Shown: positions 7,109 through 19,585, numbered from the stretch's first letter. The stretch: DNA of 64,000 nt from an uncultured delta proteobacterium (GCA_963769935.1 CAVYNY010000011.1:448001-512000); one strand, 5' to 3'. Translations and numbers: made by a program. Notes: generated by a model not told the origin, from the sequence alone.

Positions 7109-7204
7109 CAATATCAAATGAAGAAAATATAGGGTCACCCATTAAAGGGCTTGTCAAGAGAAAAAACACCCCCTTGATCAAAAAAAATCAGTTTTTGATT
7201 GACA

Positions 7205-7315
7205 TTGATGGATTCCTAAAAAGCCCGTGCTCCTGGGTTAGCTTTTGAACGCAGGCGATGGTTTGTGCTGCTGATGGTCTTAAGATAAAGATCAGGCTTT
7301 TTAGGAATCCATCAA
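7205..7315. mobile_element. MITE-like element inside the IS110 end region
   Basis: Perfect 21-bp inverted repeats TTGATGGATTCCTAAAAAGCC (7205-7225 / 7295-7315); no ORF. Confidence 0.7.
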
Positions 7316-7319
7316 GTTT

Positions 7320-7865
7320 ATAGCGCTCCTCAGCCCAGTGTCGCCTTTTCTCCTTTTCGCGCCCGCTATTTCTTTCTTATTGGCTTACGGTTAGTATTTT
7401 CTGATCCGCATCAGTCACCCATCAGGCTCAAGGCATTTGTGTTTTAAGCTCAAGGCTTGAAAACACCGCCCCTGGTCCGCTTGGGACCCCAGAAATTCTT
7501 CGGTTCCATACCGTGTTCAATTGGATGTGTTACAAATCTTGTGGTTATTAGCCAACCCCTTATGGACTCACGGCATAGGCGAATCGAGATCTAAAGCGAT
7601 CGCTGTCTGGTTATTATTGGCGAGTGCAGCAGCTGCCAATCACATCTAATGGTTTAGTGCCAACCCCTATACCGGCTCACTGCCGCACTCCAACTCTTAT
7701 CGCATACGCACCTGCCTTTTTAGTCGCTCAAATATTGGTGTCTTTTAAGGCCGATCGATGTATCATCGGCAATCAACTTTGATCGATTAGCTGGGTGCGG
7801 CAGCTGCCAATCAAAGCTGGTGGTTGAATACCAACCCCTTATCCGGTTGACTGCCGCACCCAAAC
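7320..7865 (-). ncRNA. Putative IS110 bridge/seek RNA with three target-type loops and a donor-matching segment
   Basis: Stem-enclosed units at 7793-7861, 7622-7690 and 7506-7579 share GGGGUUGG-N5-AACCA. Segment 7415-7424 matches the IS end. RNA ends are not known. Confidence 0.7.
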
Positions 7866-7868
7866 CGA

Positions 7869-8885
7869 TTAACTAAATAGCTTGTCCTCATCGAAGGCAA
7901 CCTGATCGCGCATGATGTAGTAAGAGGCCCGAGACAGCTTGTTGCTCAATGCCTTGATTGCTACCACATTCTTGCTTCTCGCCTTTTTGCTCTGATAAAA
8001 ACTGTGTGCCTTGGGACAATATCTTTTGGCAAAGTTGGCCGCCTCCACATAGGCCCAGGCCAGGTACTTGTTGCCATTTTTCTTGTTGTTCTCACCTTTT
8101 TTCTTGCCATTGGATATTCTCTTACTTTGCACACATCGACAGTAGGAAGAATAGTCACCAACTGTAGCAAAACGTCCAATATCCCCGACTTCCAGCATGA
8201 TGGTCAGCGCTAAAATCTTGCCTATCCCCGGAATCGTAAGCAACTTTGCAAATTCCTTGCGCAGCTTGGCCTGTGACATGACACGCTTTTCAATGCCTCT
8301 AATAATGTGCTTCAAAAATTCAATCGTCGCCCAACTGTTGGTGGCCATCAATACTAAATCCGGACAATCGAACAGATCTGCAACATCTATGGCGCTCAGT
8401 TTCTTGATTTCATTGTTGGATATCTTAAAACCCAGATTTCTGCTGACCATACTCTGCAGACTCAAGATCTGCGCCGTTCGCTGTCGCACAAATAAAAGCC
8501 TGCGGCGTAACAAATCCCTTACCGCTCGATTCTCCTTGGGGTAGATGTATCCTTCAGCCAGCAGGTTCAAGCGGTACATGTGCGCCAACCAAAATGCATC
8601 CCAGGGATCATCGGTATGCTTCAGTCCCTCGTATTGTTTGATTGCCGAGGGATTAGCCAAATGAACCTCGTAGCCATTGTCCTGCAGGCCGTCGACCATC
8701 CAATACCAATTGAACGTGGATTCGATTACCACCGCCTTAAGGTTTTCCTTAAACGGTTCCAGCGCCTTCAAGACTTCCTCCAGCCGGTTGCAATGCCGCT
8801 TGCCATAAAGCCTCTTATCGTTGCCGTCGATGATTCCAATAAAATTATTACTTGAATGCAAATCAATTCCAGCGTATGTTTCCAT
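7869..8885 (-). CDS. IS110 family transposase/recombinase
   Basis: GIDLHS and IEST (DEDD RuvC-like domain), KHTDDPWDA, LTIPGIG, SNGK; RBS AGGAGG. Confidence 0.95.
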   Translation of the reverse strand: METYAGIDLHSSNNFIGIIDGNDKRLYGKRHCNRLEEVLKALEPFKENLKAVVIESTFNWYWMVDGLQDNGYEVHLANPSAIKQYEGLKHTDDPWDAFWLAHMYRLNLLAEGYIYPKENRAVRDLLRRRLLFVRQRTAQILSLQSMVSRNLGFKISNNEIKKLSAIDVADLFDCPDLVLMATNSWATIEFLKHIIRGIEKRVMSQAKLRKEFAKLLTIPGIGKILALTIMLEVGDIGRFATVGDYSSYCRCVQSKRISNGKKKGENNKKNGNKYLAWAYVEAANFAKRYCPKAHSFYQSKKARSKNVVAIKALSNKLSRASYYIMRDQVAFDEDKLFS

Positions 8886-9118
8886 GGGACACCTCCTAAA
8901 TCCTATAAAATTAATGTTAGACCCTTGTCTACTGGTTCCATAGCATATTTTGCTATGGATAGGGAGGTGTCCTTTCTCAAGCTCGGCAGGCTGTAGTGAG
9001 ATTTATCGCCAGCGGTCCGTAAGAAAATCTCACGCTTGACGAGCAATAACAGCTGAATGCAGGAAAAAAAGCAGTATCTATGATTTCCTGCCCTGTTGCT
9101 CTTTATATGTATATCAAA

Positions 9119-9887: not shown

Positions 9888-9900
9888 TCCTTTGCACTTA

Positions 9901-10056
9901 GGGTTCACGAAAAAATTAGTTCACAGTTTTAGGCGTTGAGGCGCCCGTCCGGCAAGGCGCGAAAACGCAGGAATATCTGGATATTCTGAGCTTTCGCAAC
10001 GCAGTCGGGCGGGATGCAGCGGCGTATAAAATGTGAAGTTATTTTTGAGTGAGCCC
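9901..10056. mobile_element. 156-bp MITE, copy 1
   Basis: Imperfect TIRs GGGTTCACGAAAAAAT / ATTTTTGAGTGAGCCC; TTA on both flanks; inverted homologue at 19400-19555. Confidence 0.88.
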
Positions 10057-10063
10057 TTAATCA

Positions 10064-12863: not shown

Positions 12864-12966
12864 GCAGAACGAGAAAGTGAGCAGCGGCCGATTTCAGTGT
12901 CAAGATAGCACGGTCTTTACGAAAAACCGCTATCTACACGCCGTCTGCTCAACTGGTTGGTTGGCC
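12864..12966 (-). repeat. attC site (103 bp), closes the HepT/MntA cassette
   Basis: R'' GGCCAAC ... R' GTTCTGC; homologous to 5953-6055. Confidence 0.8.
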
Positions 12967-13308
12967 TTTTTCTATTGCTTCAAGCAGAGTTTGAAGTTTC
13001 ATGCGAAGGTCTGAAAGTTTGGTTGTTGCAACATCCCAGACTATTGTGTAATCAACTCCAAAATAATCATGGATAAGCCTATCTCGCATTCCAGTGATTT
13101 TTCGCCACTCGATGTCCGGTTGCATCACCCTAACATCCTCCGGCAGTTTTTGGGAGGCTTCACCGATGATCTCGAGACTTCGAACGAAGGCCCTCTTAAC
13201 AGTTGGATTCCTGACAAATGACTCATAATCCATATCAGATATCTGATTTAAGATGAAGTCGATCTCGTCAAGGATATGATGGATATATTCAAGCGGCGAT
13301 AGGGACAC
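12949..13308 (-). CDS. HEPN/DUF86 (HepT-like) RNase toxin
   Basis: LEIIGEA and RDRLIHDY (Rx4H) motifs. Confidence 0.9.
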   Translation of the reverse strand: MSLSPLEYIHHILDEIDFILNQISDMDYESFVRNPTVKRAFVRSLEIIGEASQKLPEDVRVMQPDIEWRKITGMRDRLIHDYFGVDYTIVWDVATTKLSDLRMKLQTLLEAIEKGQPTS

Positions 13309-13606
13309 GCTCTACCTCCCTTAAAATATGTGGTCCGATGTGTGGACTGAGAGCCTCTGGCGTAATCAACTCGACTTTGCGTCCCAGAATTTCTTCCAAC
13401 AGAAATGCAACTTCCATAAAATTGTCGAAAGTGTGCTTTTCAGGCGTGAATTCCGCGAGGATATCTATGTCGCTCAAAGGTGTCTGGTCACCTCGGACAA
13501 AAGAGCCGAATAGTCCAATATTTTTGACGCCATAGAATGCAAGTTGTTTTTTTTCGGCTAAAATGCGCTTAAATATTAACTCTTTAGCGTTAGTCTTTTC
13601 ATTCAT
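13289..13606 (-). CDS. Minimal nucleotidyltransferase (MntA-like) antitoxin
   Basis: LFGSFVRGDQTPLSDIDI. Confidence 0.9.
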   Translation of the reverse strand: MNEKTNAKELIFKRILAEKKQLAFYGVKNIGLFGSFVRGDQTPLSDIDILAEFTPEKHTFDNFMEVAFLLEEILGRKVELITPEALSPHIGPHILREVERVPIAA

Positions 13607-13655: not shown

Positions 13656-13721
13656 AGGGGGACATGGGGGTCGCATCTCAAAAAGGGGGACATGGGGGTC
13701 GCATCTCAAATATTAAGTATT
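13656..13721 (+). repeat. Tandem 27-bp repeat (period 28) forming the left terminal repeat of the RAYT-like element
   Basis: AGGGGGACATGGGGGTCGCATCTCAAA at 13656-13682 and 13684-13710. Confidence 0.9.
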
Positions 13722-14678
13722 TTCCTTCTGATTCGATCCTCCCGCCCCTTAAGCTTGCGATCCGTCTCAAGTTTTTTCGCGATCCGGTCATGCCGAGCCG
13801 CGATTCCAGCTCCGGAGATGTCGAACCGCCTGCCCAGGACGACACTGGTTTCTCCCGTCATTTCCCTGCAAAGATAAATCGCCACATCCCGGGCTAAATT
13901 CCTCTTTTTCCCTTTTTGTAGGATGCTTTCTATCCCGCAACCGAATTCGTCGGAAACCGCTTGAATAAGATCATCGGGCGTTGGGCGGGGTTTCAGGATT
14001 TTCAGTTGGGGGATCTCCTGGCTGTTCGATTCCTTGCTTAAAAATGTCTTCTTCACCCAGTTTACGAAATCGACTCGCCCCAAAACAACACCGCCTACGA
14101 CGTCATCGGACGGATTCTCAATCTTTATGTTTTCGACCGACTCGACAAATTCACGGTATCTTTTTTTCGCGATGTCTCCTGTCCTCTCCGAACAGCGACA
14201 ATAACCAGTCCGTCTCCAGCCATTCCGGAGACTCAACATAGCCGCTTAAAGCCCGGTAGCTGCTCCATGGATAGTCTCTGCAATGTTCAACCATCCCCGC
14301 CCGCACCGGATTCAGATGGATATATCGCGACAGGTGCTTTAAATATTCATCCGCGTCCACCAGCACGGCTTTGAAGCGCCCTTGGAACAGATGACCGAAG
14401 CGTCTTCGTTTGCGATTGAAATACACCGAATAACCGACGTTGATCCATTTGATCGCCTGACTCAGGTTCGCATGGGGAGTTTCTATCAAAAAGTGATAAT
14501 GCGTGCTCATCAGGCAAAAGGTATGCACCTTGATTCCGTATCGTTTCACCGCCTCGCCGACATATTCCAAGAACTTTTCCCGGTCCCGCTCGCTCCTATA
14601 TATATTCATTCCCGTGTTTCCGCGATTCATCACGTGATAGAAAGCACCCGGGAATTCTATTCTTAACGGCCGCGCCAT
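13706..14678 (-). CDS. HUH/Y1 transposase (RAYT/IS200-like) with C-terminal DnaA_C-like HTH; one frameshift near 14200
   Basis: YHVMNRG, MSTHYH (HuH), GHLFQGRF, YIHLNPVRAG, WSSY; second ORF ends RDVAIYLCREMTGETSVVLGRRF. Confidence 0.85.
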
Positions 14679-14728: not shown

Positions 14729-14757
14729 ACGCTATCTTAACGGCATGGCCTTGTCAA
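14729..14757 (-). promoter_or_regulatory. Putative sigma70 promoter of the RAYT-like gene
   Basis: TTGACA-17 nt-TAGCGT. Confidence 0.5.
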
Positions 14758-14763
14758 TACTTT

Positions 14764-17022
14764 GTAGAGTAGAACATCGGTGCAGTGGCTGCAGGCGTCG
14801 GCGGCATCTCTGCCGATTTCCCGGCAGACCTCAGTCCGACTACCATACCTTCCTTCCCTTAGTCCCCTCGTCGAACCGGACGTCGGGTTTTCCCCGGTAC
14901 GGCTCACCGACGACCTTCCCCATGTGTTTATCAGTAACCGTTGCCGTTGAATTACAGTGACTAACCGAACTGGTATAATCCCAGTCGAACAACTAAATTG
15001 TTGTGGACTCTCCAAGTGCCCCTCGATCGATCACTGTACTTCCGCTTCAGGAATATTCGCAGCCGTTCGCGGACAAAGGCATTGAGCTTGCGAAGCCGTT
15101 TGAGCACCGGTCTTGTCGCTTTGTGATAATTGTTCCAACCCCGTATTACCGGTGTCAGCTCTTTTATCAACTCCTCCAGCGATAGACTATAGCGTCGCCC
15201 AATGACTTCCTTCACTCGTTGCCTGATGCGGCCCATCGAACGCTCTGAAGGCCATATTGCGCAGAACTGCTTTGATTTCGAGTTCTTCTTGCGCACCGGA
15301 CACAGACGCAAATGCACGCCGAGAAAATCAAACCCGTCTTTCGCTTTAACCATACGCGTTTTATCCGGGTGCAGCTTCAAGCCAAGACGTCCCAGCATCT
15401 GCTCCACCTGCTTTTTAACCTGCTTTCCGTTACGCCACAGCAAGATAACAAAATCATCCGCATATCTTACCAGTGTTCCTGGAATTCCCGACATCTGGAA
15501 CATTTTGTCAAACGAGTGTAGATAGATATTGCTCAGCAACGGTGAAATTACACCACCTTGCGGAGTTCCCAGCCCGTTCGTTTCGATATATTTGCCCTCT
15601 TCCATGACCCCGGCTTCCAACCACATGCGAATTAACTTTAAAACACGCGCATCAGCGATGCGGCGTTCAACCAGTTCCAGTAGAATATCCTGGCGAATAT
15701 TGTCGAAAAATCCCGTTATATCGGCGTCAAAAACGATGCGCTGACCTTTGAAGGTAATCCTGCGTTCTATTATACGGATCGCGTCATGGGCGCTTCGCCC
15801 CGGACGAAATCCGTGAGAACAATCCAAAAAATTGGCCTCAAATATCGGCTCGATTACCAGTTTGGTCGCCATCTGGCAAACGCGGTCAAAAATAACCGGA
15901 ACCCCAAGCGGCCTTTTCTCAGGTTTGCCCGGTTTGTCGATATAGCACCGCAGCACTGGCTGCGGCCGGTACCGCTTGCTTTTTAATTGCTCGCGGACTT
16001 CCGCCAGAAATTGATCCACACCAATTACATCCTCGATGTATTCAAAATCCTGCCGATCGACTCCAGGTGCACCCTTGTTGGCCTTGACGCGCTTCCAGGC
16101 CTCCAAAACAACATCTTCACGATAGATCTTATCGTAAAGAGCCCCGAATCTCCTATCCAGCGACTGCTTCGCTGCATGGGACAGTTTAGACTGCAAGTCA
16201 GAAACTTTGTTCCGCACGTTCATAGCTCCTTGAGCACTCATGCCTTCTTACTGTTAACAGATAGAAATGCAACTGGTGTTTAAACCGATGATGATTCGGG
16301 ACAGTTCGAGTTCTTGGCCCGGTGGTCGCACCGTTCCCCAACGACTGCCGGTTGGGTTTTGTTAAAGCGGGGTCCCCGTAAACCCGCACCTTATCCTCAC
16401 CCTCAAATCTATCCACTGTTCCGCATTTCAACTCACACCCTAAACGCGGTCGAAGTATGGCCCCACGCTCAGGACAGGTTATGTTGTCCTGCCCGTCGTC
16501 ACTTCCAGGCCACTCCGACTTCCCTACGCCCATCACCTCCATCTTGCCGGTTTCACCCGACTTGATACAGGCTTACCGCAGGCGGAGACCTGCGGAGACG
16601 CTGGGATCTCAGGTCTTTCCTCCATTATCTGTCACCGCATGCCGTTGGCCTTACCCCGGGTCCCTACCAGGTGCGCATACCCTTTGCTTCCCTGGTAGCT
16701 CTGGCCTTCTCCCAAATTATAGAGGATCGGCGGGTATCCCTGCGATGCAGGGTTTATCCCTCAATCGGACTCTCCCAGCTATAGCCGTCCGATCACATCT
16801 TACGAGGCTGCACCATTCGCGTCATGCTACGGCCTGCGGTTTTGGCCGGCACCCCTGACTGGGTAAAACCCGCATATCCTGCGAGCCGTCTCGGTACCGT
16901 GTCGGGGCAAGTTCAGCCCGCGTGTTACCACGCGAACCCGCCCTCTGCCTTCATATCCATAAGGGCAACTGATATGATAACCTCCTTTCAGGTTACTAGA
17001 TAATGGTCTCGCGACCTCGTAC
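14764..17022 (-). mobile_element. Group II intron, full length (~2.26 kb)
   Basis: 5' end GTACG; domain V GAGCCGTACCGGGGAAAACCCGACGTCCGGTTC; 3' end CTACTCTAC; EBS1 at 16714-16720 pairs with the 5' exon. Confidence 0.9.
14961..16241 (-). CDS. ltrA: Group II intron reverse transcriptase/maturase, no endonuclease domain
   Basis: NKGAPGVD, RPLGVP, SHGFRPGRS, GTPQGGVISPLLSN, RYADD, FDFLG, IRGWNNY. Confidence 0.95.
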   Translation of the reverse strand: MSAQGAMNVRNKVSDLQSKLSHAAKQSLDRRFGALYDKIYREDVVLEAWKRVKANKGAPGVDRQDFEYIEDVIGVDQFLAEVREQLKSKRYRPQPVLRCYIDKPGKPEKRPLGVPVIFDRVCQMATKLVIEPIFEANFLDCSHGFRPGRSAHDAIRIIERRITFKGQRIVFDADITGFFDNIRQDILLELVERRIADARVLKLIRMWLEAGVMEEGKYIETNGLGTPQGGVISPLLSNIYLHSFDKMFQMSGIPGTLVRYADDFVILLWRNGKQVKKQVEQMLGRLGLKLHPDKTRMVKAKDGFDFLGVHLRLCPVRKKNSKSKQFCAIWPSERSMGRIRQRVKEVIGRRYSLSLEELIKELTPVIRGWNNYHKATRPVLKRLRKLNAFVRERLRIFLKRKYSDRSRGTWRVHNNLVVRLGLYQFG

Positions 17023-17434
17023 ATAATTTAGATGCGACCCTGGAGACCTTCATCAAGCAGGATATTCAATATCGCCGGCAGGCCGGCAATCATTGAACCC
17101 GGCGCTTGCCGGACCGGGACGTTTATCATTCGGCCGGTTTCATTTTTTTCCGATTTTAAGAGTGGTTGACCGTCAATCGCTCCAATAGGCGATTTTCAAT
17201 CGACGCCGGCGAGTGTTTCAATCCCCAGAAACCCGAACTCCCTGTTTTGCCCGGGCGCCTTTCCCCAACCATTTGCTGTCAATTAACCGTGCCCCACATT
17301 TCAACCTTGCCCAAAAAAAATCAATCTGGTTATCGGAAATGACCAAGTCAGAGGGGTGACGTCCATTTTCTCCCCCGCCCTCGGTTCCTCCCGCCAGGCA
17401 AGGGAAGCAATATTACCCCGCGCTTGGGCTTTGC

Positions 17435-17977: not shown

Positions 17978-18298
17978 TTAAAGCGCGAGTTGGGTGGCAA
18001 TTGCTTTGCCGATACCTTCCATCTCGGTGGAAGATATCGAGCCTGCCGAATTGATAAGCCGTTTTTTGCTTACCGTGGTGAGCTGATCTGCCATCGCCTT
18101 AGCCTTTTTACCACGAAACGTCACATAGGCTTCACTTGGGAAAAGTTTATCAACACTGCTTGTTAAGGGCACAACTTGAACTCTGTTCAAATAATGATTG
18201 GCAGCATCATTGCTTACGATGACGGCTGGTCTCTGTTTGCGGATCTCACCTCCGATGGAAGGATCGAAATTAACCCACCATACTTCACCTCTCTTCAT
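17978..18298 (-). CDS. mazF: MazF/PemK toxin
   Basis: MKRGEVWWVNFDPSIGGEIRKQRPAVIVSND, VVPLTS. Confidence 0.92.
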   Translation of the reverse strand: MKRGEVWWVNFDPSIGGEIRKQRPAVIVSNDAANHYLNRVQVVPLTSSVDKLFPSEAYVTFRGKKAKAMADQLTTVSKKRLINSAGSISSTEMEGIGKAIATQLAL

Positions 18299-18515
18299 CG
18301 CCAAAATCTCCAGTCGTACCTTCGGCCCACTCAAGGGCTTCAGACTCTCTTATTTGATCAGCAGCCATCTCTTCATACGCAGCATACATATCTTTTTTTA
18401 CAACATGCGGGCGTACTAAGTCCTCAATAAAGCGGCTGATTTTTCGTGGTCCGATGACGGTTCGCAAACCTTCATAAACCTCTTCGTCGATGGTTACTGT
18501 AAGTTTCTTTTGCAT
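18285..18515 (-). CDS. Antitoxin of the MazF module
   Basis: MQKKLTVTIDEEVYEGL; overlaps the toxin start. Confidence 0.8.
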   Translation of the reverse strand: MQKKLTVTIDEEVYEGLRTVIGPRKISRFIEDLVRPHVVKKDMYAAYEEMAADQIRESEALEWAEGTTGDFGDEER

Positions 18516-18595
18516 TACGAGCACCTCCTTAAATATTACACGTATAATAACACGTGCAATTTGCGGGGTCAAGAGGTCAGAAATATCCTTACGAT

Positions 18596-18677: not shown

Positions 18678-19399
18678 GGCGCAGCGCGCCGAGCAGCCTG
18701 CGGATGATCATCCGCAGCGATTGTCGAGGACGCGCAGCGTCCTCGACAACCAGTGATTGAGTAGTTTCCGTTTATCATCCAGCAACAAAATAAACCCATT
18801 GTTTAAGCGCTAAAAAAGTGACAAAAATGCTATTTTTTAACAGGTTTCCAACTGTTTAACATGCATTAGGTCATAATATGCGGAGGCCGGTTAAATACAC
18901 ATCAAAGCCTGTCTGCTGATTTAGCTCTGAGTTTCAAAGTTTTATTGGTTCCCAAAGATATACCAAAAGGAAATCAACCTCATTATTGAACCGGACGGCT
19001 TTTAAATTCTCCACAAAAAATCCCGCTATCTTTTTGAGAAGCGGGATTTTTGATTGCGCTGCATCATTTATTCTCCTATGTCGGGCTAAAGAATGAATGC
19101 AGAAGCCGGATGAAGAGCTCCGAGCTCCGGAAGCGATGACGCCATCGTATCGAAAAAAATCAAAAAAATCAATGTTGACAATAAAACCCCCTTTCGTTAT
19201 CCGGATAGAAATAGTGATTTGGCTCGTATAATTCGCGCTTCTAAATGTCGGGCTGCCTTGTCCCGGCGTAGCTCGACCTGTCGGGTCGTAGCTGAAAGCG
19301 AAGCCCAAAGAGCGAAGTCGGAAGCTGAAGCCGGTGCATAATTATCAAGGTAAGCACCGGAAAGGCAATTTTTTGTCGTGTAGCTTTAACCTGAACTAA

Positions 19400-19555
19400 G
19401 GGCTCACTCAAAAATAACTTCACATTTTATACGCCGCTGCATCCCGCCTGGCTGCGTGGCGAAAGCTCGGCATATCCAGATATTCCTGCGTTTTCGCGCC
19501 TTGCCAGCCGGGCGCCGCAACGACTAAAATTGTGAACTTATTTTTTCGTGAACCC
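19400..19555. mobile_element. 156-bp MITE, copy 2 (inverted)
   Basis: Reverse-complement homologue of 9901-10056; TAA on both flanks. Confidence 0.88.
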
Positions 19556-19585
19556 TAAGCGATTTCCAAGTACTTGCACGCTGTC

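Follow-up and report, generated by a model that had tools for sequence, protein, structure and literature searches.

A group II intron and an IS1111-type element converge on the terminal repeats of TIRYT elements in an uncultured delta proteobacterium

We analysed a 64,000-nt stretch of DNA from an uncultured delta proteobacterium (GCA_963769935.1, CAVYNY010000011.1:448001-512000), hereafter called the window, by which the whole stretch is meant. It contains a group II intron and an insertion sequence (IS) of the IS1111 type within the IS110 family. These two unrelated RNA-guided elements converge on one repeat family, the terminal inverted repeats (TIRs) of TIRYT elements, and the initial annotation of this DNA, which had placed both on the same multicopy repeat, is borne out by two cases in which intron and IS lie in a single repeat copy. 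One is on contig C15 and the other at metagenome locus L115 (C-numbered contigs belong to the same genome and L-numbered loci to relatives). At C15, the IS is 99.7% identical to its siblings, while the intron is more divergent; therefore, the intron probably arrived first. At L115, an AGCTT-type repeat contains the left end and the gene start of a related IS together with a related intron whose exon-binding sites (EBSs) have different sequences, and a TIRYT open reading frame (ORF) follows 43 bp downstream. Across the relatives, the heptamers AGATGTG, AGATTTG, AGCTTTG, and AGACGTG were found both as EBS2 of an intron and as guide of an IS. The two agree because both pair with the strand GGGGTCACATCT; hence, their identity is not separate evidence for common descent. 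It is probable that a clade of introns and a clade of IS1111-type elements insert at fixed positions in GGGG(T/A)C-type TIRYT TIRs and that both are guided to the same variable heptamer on the same strand.

The intron and its site in the TIRYT terminal repeat

The intron, its exons, and the TIRYT element in which it lies are as follows.
14764..17022, minus strand: group II intron of 2259 nt with 5' end GUACG and 3' end CUCUAC, of the EBS1+EBS2 type, endonuclease-less
17023..17040, minus strand: 5' exon, the outer part of the left TIRYT terminal repeat, with intron-binding site (IBS) 1 at 17023-17029 and IBS2 at 17030-17036
14756..14763, minus strand: 3' exon, the inner part of the left TIR, AAAGTATT, defined by copy comparison and the empty allele
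14961..16241, minus strand: intron-encoded protein (IEP), a reverse transcriptase (RT)/maturase of 426 aa with YADD intact; TIGR04416, 387.9 bits (cutoff 300)
14873..14905, minus strand: domain V with AGC triad and 5-nt terminal loop, followed by a long domain VI
16714..16720, minus strand: EBS1 AUAAUUU, a short hairpin at the Id3 position having it in its loop
16794..16800, minus strand: EBS2 AGAUGUG, unpaired, at the junction of two stems
13706..14678, minus strand: TIRYT gene, Y1_Tnp and Bac_DnaA_C, split by one extra base near 14176
13695..13720, plus strand: right TIR, empty, with a partial tandem duplicate at 13667 (whole span 13667..13720)

On the minus strand, the insertion divides GGGTCGCATCTAAATTAT exactly from AAAGTATT, running from the GUACG end at 17022 to the CUCUAC end at 14764. 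The junction proposed initially is thus exact in the sequence, and the joined allele without the intron is present in contigs of runs X4 and X6. All five genomic copies of the intron occupy the same TIR position, and the scatter over unrelated sites that had been named as the contrary outcome was not seen. Four of the copies differ by 3–5 nt in 1185, and the C15 intron differs from these four by 21–24 nt over the same length. The near-identical copies and the empty alleles imply that the intron has probably been mobile recently. The intron ORF is intact in the window and C13 copies and is shortened to 351 aa in the C17 copy, and a second C11 copy (G000:C11:191808) ends abruptly inside domain V. 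A joint duplication of intron and TIRYT element in the window and at C17 was considered and is disfavoured; the two introns differ at 4 of 1185 nt, like other recent pairs, and the adjoining 538 nt differ at 9 positions.

Membership in group II is indicated by the domain V triad, the GUACG/AC ends, the RT/maturase ORF, and the EBS/IBS pairing. Rfam gave no matches in the window at gathering thresholds, and the intron surfaced only in E-value mode, as a match to RF00029 at 14764-14907 (E 0.00083; 32 bits, under the gathering score of 40), the long insert in domain VI being the reason for the low score. In a profile search, the IEP contained only the RVT_1 and GIIM domains, and no endonuclease domain was matched up to E=5, in agreement with the initial annotation. 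The intron does not belong to class C (IIC), since EBS2 covaries with the exon and no hairpin signal was seen at 26 of 28 empty sites. A 5-nt domain V loop, a long domain VI (class F), and an endonuclease-less IEP are features of classes E/F (PMC3753933), and all three were seen in this intron. On these features, it can provisionally be called F-like. Searches of PDB and plasmids left the class unfixed, the best plasmid matches having 45–48% identity.

The pairing of both EBSs with the exon was investigated in relatives; 105 intron loci were fetched, of which 62 were distinct with a readable 5' junction. EBS1 pairs with the exon at 312 of 350 positions (50 loci, 25 distinct EBS1 sequences), compared with 188 ± 10 and a maximum of 223 in 2000 shuffles, and EBS2 does so at 349 of 406 positions (58 loci, 24 distinct EBS2 sequences), compared with 240 ± 8 and a maximum of 265; these counts take the best of three spacers in both data and shuffles, and the shuffle ignores relatedness. 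Across approximately 50 relatives, EBS1 and EBS2 thus covary with the exon beyond chance. Single-sequence folds were not decisive for domain I and gave z -0.66 for domains V–VI, and an alignment fold was used in their place. In this consensus (37 sequences; 42 of 111 pairs compensated), a hairpin loop of domain Id contains EBS1, and EBS2 occupies an unpaired junction of the same domain. Both positions given by the initial annotation are confirmed, as is the single G-U with which EBS2 AGAUGUG pairs with CGCATCT. EBS2 comprises 7 nt, since in the consensus fold the next stem begins with the eighth base that had been counted as its context.

Preference for the TIR is largely confined to close relatives. 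The motif GGGG-W-C-R (at least 6 of 7 positions), which has a background rate of 1.6% at the fixed offsets, was found at 29 of 41 loci whose IEP is at least 78% identical and at 1 of 11 more distant loci; the former count is a lower bound, as the offsets missed a subclade inserted 5 nt deeper (L078, L115, and L117, labelled non-TIR). In a phylogenetic tree, all 30 TIR-labelled rows fall inside a 42-row group with branch support 98/96, under a midpoint root only. Within the genome itself, 50 sites lie within two substitutions of the perfect EBS complement, and 24 of them pair at 13–14 of 14 bases. Of these 24, five of eight are occupied in TIR context and none of 16 elsewhere (TIR context was assigned by eye; Fisher p=0.0013, rising to 0.004 if four insertions are counted). 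Since equally EBS-paired sites outside TIRs are empty, EBS pairing alone is insufficient.

The repeat itself is the end of a TIRYT element, which lies between inverted repeat copies at 13695 (plus) and 17040 (minus). PF01797 and PF08299 fall on the two halves of the frameshifted TIRYT gene; the extra base near 14176 is missing in the C9 copy and in contigs of all four sequencing runs examined. In the TIRYT or TnpA-Y1 subclass 2.1.2, a Y1 HUH transposase with Bac_DnaA_C lies between GGGGWSAS TIRs (PMC3733652, bioRxiv 279083), and the element here resembles these TIRtrons in the gene, in its GGGGWSAS-type TIRs, and in the occurrence of solo and dimeric TIRs (same sources). The variant GGGGTCAC fits GGGGWSAS, and the window subfamily GGGGTCGC is one base off the consensus. 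The initial annotation had called the repeat the end of a RAYT-like element. The repeat is a TIRYT TIR and not the REP (repetitive extragenic palindromic) hairpin of a classical RAYT. A classical RAYT-REP pair (REPtron), in which GTAG-tagged REP hairpins would surround the gene, was rejected, as NF047646 gave 73 bits, below the cutoff of 80, and single repeats do not fold.

A census of the genome gave 12 GGGTCGCATCT and 6 GGGTCACATCT sites; three of these have no AT-rich tail and resemble chance matches. Sister TIR subfamilies diverge chiefly in the heptamer after GGGGT. Three TIRYT copies are 97.5–98% identical at different sites. TIRs of a second TIRYT subfamily (GGGGACGGGTATTGAT) abut the truncation points of an intron ORF (G000:C15:144363-145436) and of a TIRYT ORF (G000:C17:223260-223300). 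Together with the three near-identical copies, these points hint that TIRYT elements move or cause adjacent deletions; bioRxiv 279083 states that evidence for mobility of class 2 is lacking. Approximately 25 near-identical copies of another repeat starting GGGTCGTAGCTCGAAGAGCG (e.g. G000:C8:56137) also fit a loose TIR pattern, and neither intron nor IS was found at the corresponding position in these repeats genome-wide.

The IS1111-type element and its guide-like loops

The IS has the following parts.
7135..9116, minus strand: IS1111-type member of the IS110 family, the span taking in both TGA cores, located in a sister TIR of the AGCTT subfamily
7869..8885, minus strand: DEDD recombinase, 338 aa; NF033542 183 bits (cutoff 140), PF01548, PF02371
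7790..7866, minus strand: target loop 1, left guide AGCUUUGA at 7811-7818, which fits the window and C39 sites
7619..7695, minus strand: target loop 2, left guide AGAUGUGA at 7640-7647, which fits the C15 site and equals the intron EBS2 over 7 nt
7505..7590, minus strand: third, more conserved guide-like loop, with guide-like AGAUUUGU at 7532-7539
7412..7423, minus strand: donor-loop segment AUGGGUGA, identical to the IS right end

The recombinase carries acidic residues at positions 8, 55, 93, and 96 (by eye), and its gene is flanked by non-coding regions of 737 nt on the 3' side and 229 nt on the 5' side. The long 3' non-coding region and the position of the top-strand guide 5' of the bottom-strand guide identify the IS1111 type. 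GGGGUU precedes each of the three left guides AGCUUUGA, AGAUGUGA, and AGAUUUGU. An imperfect inverted match of 9–10 nt near both IS ends, a candidate for subterminal inverted repeats, was seen by eye. A predicted circle junction (7138-7160 joined to 9113) would place TTGACA 17 nt before TATACA, resembling a junction promoter. The right end holds a long hairpin-forming insert (approximately 7175-7400), where contigs of relatives skip approximately 230 nt. The only RNA run examined (X19) yielded contigs of relatives only and hence no information on expression.

All three full IS copies are in GGGTCA-type TIRs. The window and C39 copies lie at AGCTTTGA-CCC sites, which form the loop-1 subfamily, and the C15 copy lies at AGATGTGA-CCCC in the same repeat copy as an intron. 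The convergence of loop 2 on the intron's repeat, as first annotated, is thus seen at C15, but not at the window copy, which fits loop 1 in a sister repeat. Likewise, EBS2 and the loop-2 guide are alike over 7 nt, but a perfect fit is limited to TCACATCT for the IS and CACATCT for EBS2 and does not extend to the whole of GGGTCACATCT. Run X1 contains a contig that skips the IS at the window site. In an X1 contig of the IS itself, with 1 difference over 1585 nt, the left end leads into a CATCTT repeat whose flank is new.

We compared 76 related IS loci, mostly from metagenome-assembled genomes (MAGs) of Desulfobacterales, and the three own copies, which together provided 57 complete 3' regions. 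Loops were called with an nhmmer profile, which had 0 matches on shuffled regions and replaced two regular-expression parsers that missed or misread loops. Two loop units were found in 35 of the 57 regions, three in 16, and one in 6, four of these six being deletion remnants. The left target exactly equals one of the guides of the element itself in 17 of 33 relatives, compared with 5.6 ± 1.8 and a maximum of 12 in 5000 shuffles, and the right flank starts with CCC in 39 of 50. Loop 2 fits the target better in 8 of 13 cases. A target loop of the IS is duplicated and differently programmed, likely for a second repeat subfamily, which would widen the target range. The third loop is more conserved, reading AGATTTGT in 27 of 51 cases, and by itself this terminal loop accounts for 1 of 22 targets of two-unit elements; it may therefore have another role. 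Four IS copies in one Desulfobacteraceae MAG (L003, L004, L005, and L067) have no complete target loops, owing to a deletion between the first loop and the donor region; they lie at TIR-type sites with differing right flanks, and the same MAG contains a three-loop element (L017).

Proposed mechanism and alternative explanations

If the repeat GGGGTCACATCTTAATTAT is numbered 1–19, the IS recombines at the TCA core (bases 5–7) and the intron inserts after base 19, both positions being evident at the occupied sites. EBS1 would pair with bases 13–19 and EBS2 with bases 6–12, as supported by covariation. Judging from target matches, the left guide of the IS may pair with bases 5–12 and the GGGGUU right guide with the opposite strand of bases 1–6. 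Neither insertion destroys the heptamer of the other; therefore, both fit in one repeat copy. A further cue is probably required by the intron, most likely a reading of the G-rich distal exon by the IEP. Its cDNA is probably primed from a passing replication fork, as in other endonuclease-less introns, for which fork priming is an established route (PMC4424553, PMC4615759). The benefit for both elements is probably a dispersed, intergenic, and non-essential target that is replenished by a third element, and the "safe harbour" role initially proposed for the repeat is a reasonable inference. A bolder extension, possible but on balance doubtful, is that the IS1111-type clade is a natural multiplexed guide system (a small TIGR-like array with independent target loops and one recombinase) and that it and the intron clade chase a TIRYT heptamer that diversifies to escape both, in a three-way arms race.

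Several observations weigh against guided convergence or parts of it. Among 23 family and 401 phylum genomes, the junction pattern IS-TIR-intron was found only in the genome studied here. A search with five query proteins revealed a neighbouring TIRYT-like ORF at only 7 of the 42 IS loci and 3 of the 34 intron loci examined, so that most targets would be solo or miniature copies. The introns at L103, L110-L113, and L145 fall inside the TIR clade and occupy non-TIR sites, and in the subclade of L078, L115, and L117 the insertion point lies 5 nt deeper in TIRs of the same family and both EBSs are re-registered, which weakens the case for a fixed protein contact on the G-run. The window IS is inside the sister repeat AGGGTCA^AAGCTTGAATTGTGAAT, which fits loop 1 and is not the intron's repeat subfamily. 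No exact match to the own guide was found for 16 of 33 IS targets, 14 of which are one mismatch off, and several targets fit more than one loop when G-U wobble is allowed. The statistics for loop 2 are marginal: exact matches by a later loop only occur in 4 of 16 cases against 1.44 expected (p ~0.02), and the smaller comparison gave 3 of 5 against 0.99 with wobble (p ~0.04) and 2 of 5 for exact matches (p ~0.054). The same AGATGTGA loop is also present in a relic on C10, which could act in trans, and the four copies with deleted target loops suggest that target RNA is supplied in trans to loop-less copies. A right donor guide, looked for by eye in the IS, was not identified, and the consensus fold of the loop unit pairs part of the right guide.

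An alternative is that the convergence is real but the IS has one functional target loop with relaxed specificity, loop 2 being passive and AGATGTGA sites being reached through wobble or RNA in trans. The targets one mismatch from the best guide, the loop-less copies in one genome, the C10 relic, and the two-loop cases in which the terminal loop accounts for 1 of 22 are all in line with this explanation. However, the C15 and L015 targets have two true mismatches for loop 1 and none for loop 2, the unit stem is retained with compensation at 10 of 17 pairs (34 units), and 19 of 20 three-loop elements have different guides in loops 1 and 2. Moreover, the two commonest TIR core classes counted in the genome, RCAT (8 of 20) and AAAG (4 of 20), correspond to loop 2 and loop 1, respectively. 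We regard a single functional loop as unlikely. Descent or capture of the guide, from the other element or from the repeat, instead of convergence by point mutation might seem to account for seven identical bases, four heptamers common across relatives, and the adjacency of the elements at C15 and L115. The scaffolds around the heptamers are unrelated, though, since blastn of intron and IS against all loci matched only the L115 neighbour and, in one weak match, the RT ORF; identity is expected from pairing with the same strand, and guides within each clade differ by single substitutions. A shared origin of the guide is disfavoured and appears highly improbable.

A structure-driven choice, in which both elements are drawn to single-stranded DNA at the repeats, through hairpins or the HUH activity of TIRYT, and in which the intron uses this in place of an endonuclease, had been raised initially for the intron. 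It would suit an IEP lacking that domain and the empty EBS-paired sites outside TIRs, which show that more than EBS pairing matters; paired TIRs are palindromic at C13 and L109, and class C introns aim at terminator and attC motifs (PMC4424553). The hairpin model was nevertheless rejected, because folding beyond that of shuffles (z < -2) was seen at only 2 of 28 reconstructed empty sites (1 of 3 own and 1 of 25 related, both paired-TIR palindromes) and the window's own site has z +0.87. In addition, both EBS1 and EBS2 are complete in this intron, in contrast to IIC introns that seek hairpins, and most targets have no detectable TIRYT ORF nearby. Strand tests gave no replication signal and were uninformative in this weakly skewed draft genome: on the sense strand of the intron, whole-sequence GC skew has a positive sign at 4 of 5 intron sites, compared with 4 of 9 empty repeats, and fourfold-site skew is within approximately 1.3 standard errors of zero at all five intron sites. 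Attraction by DNA structure is improbable, and guided insertion into the TIR by both elements is preferred. Among the introns outside TIRs, the L110-L113 subclade (IEP 91% identical) has left TIRs for a GATATCTCARGTTT-type target with a matching EBS2.

Comparison with known systems and flanking genes

The closest kinds of event concern other repeats. Integron attC sites are common to IIC-attC introns and IS1111-attC elements such as ISPa21 and ISPst6 (PMC3001079); there, as here, the recombination repeat of another mobile system serves as target both for a lineage of group II introns and for one of IS1111 elements. IIC introns lack EBS2 (PMC3753933), whereas the present intron has EBS1 and EBS2, its target is a mostly non-folding TIRYT TIR, and the guides of intron and IS are identical over 7 nt. 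RmInt2, an endonuclease-less intron of class D, likewise homes through EBS1/EBS2 into inverted repeats of another element, ISRm17, its IEP reads the distal exon, and its homing has a lagging-strand bias (PMC4615759). That case involves one intron, one IS repeat, and one strain, in contrast to a clade with many EBS variants and several TIR subfamilies shared with IS1111-type elements. IS4321 and IS5075 of the IS1111 family in Tn21-family TIRs, and IS621 and ISPpu9 in REPs, are also aimed at the ends or repeats of other elements; the present IS differs in targeting a TIRYT TIR and in having two or three guide-like loops and a donor segment.

The non-coding region resembles seekRNAs and bridge RNAs (PMC11187229, bioRxiv 2024.01.24.577089) in its 3' location, in having the top-strand match first, in a donor segment matching the end, and in its DEDD recombinase. 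The RNAs described there have one target and one donor loop, and PMC12045711 treats the IS110 bridge RNA as a single two-stem unit, whereas 51 of 57 complete regions here have two or three guide-like units. TIGR arrays are similar in that their stem-loop units occur in tandem and carry two spacers, which CCA and UG motifs flank (PMC12045711); the present regions differ in having only 2–3 units, a transposing DEDD recombinase, and a donor segment. A term search of PMC3733652 and bioRxiv 279083 gave no intron insertion in TIRYT TIRs. In the literature searched, including the bridge RNA, seekRNA, and TIGR papers, we found no report of introns or IS110 elements in TIRYT ends or of duplicated target loops, and supplements on bridge RNA structures could hold cases; the word TIRYT itself occurred in only two papers. 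The kind of event is therefore known from attC, RmInt2, and Tn21 TIRs, while the literature searched contained neither a TIRYT target used by both elements nor target loops that are duplicated and programmed differently. The system offers a natural case in which a ribozyme retroelement and a bridge recombinase reach one seven-base guide by reading the same DNA, over several subfamilies. The poorly known TIRYT ends gain a role as a common landing pad, in parallel with integron attC, and the duplicated target loops bear on whether bridge recombinases could be multiplexed and on the connection that has been proposed between bridge RNAs and TIGR arrays.

The TIRYT-intron block is flanked by toxin-antitoxin pairs at 12949-13606 and 17978-18572, amid short unrelated genes and repeats. 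The pairs are of the nucleotidyltransferase-HepT type and of a PemK/MazF-like type with a small upstream ORF. Two intergenic segments that resemble each other and are inverted relative to one another were noticed by eye at approximately 9900-10060 and 19390-19560.

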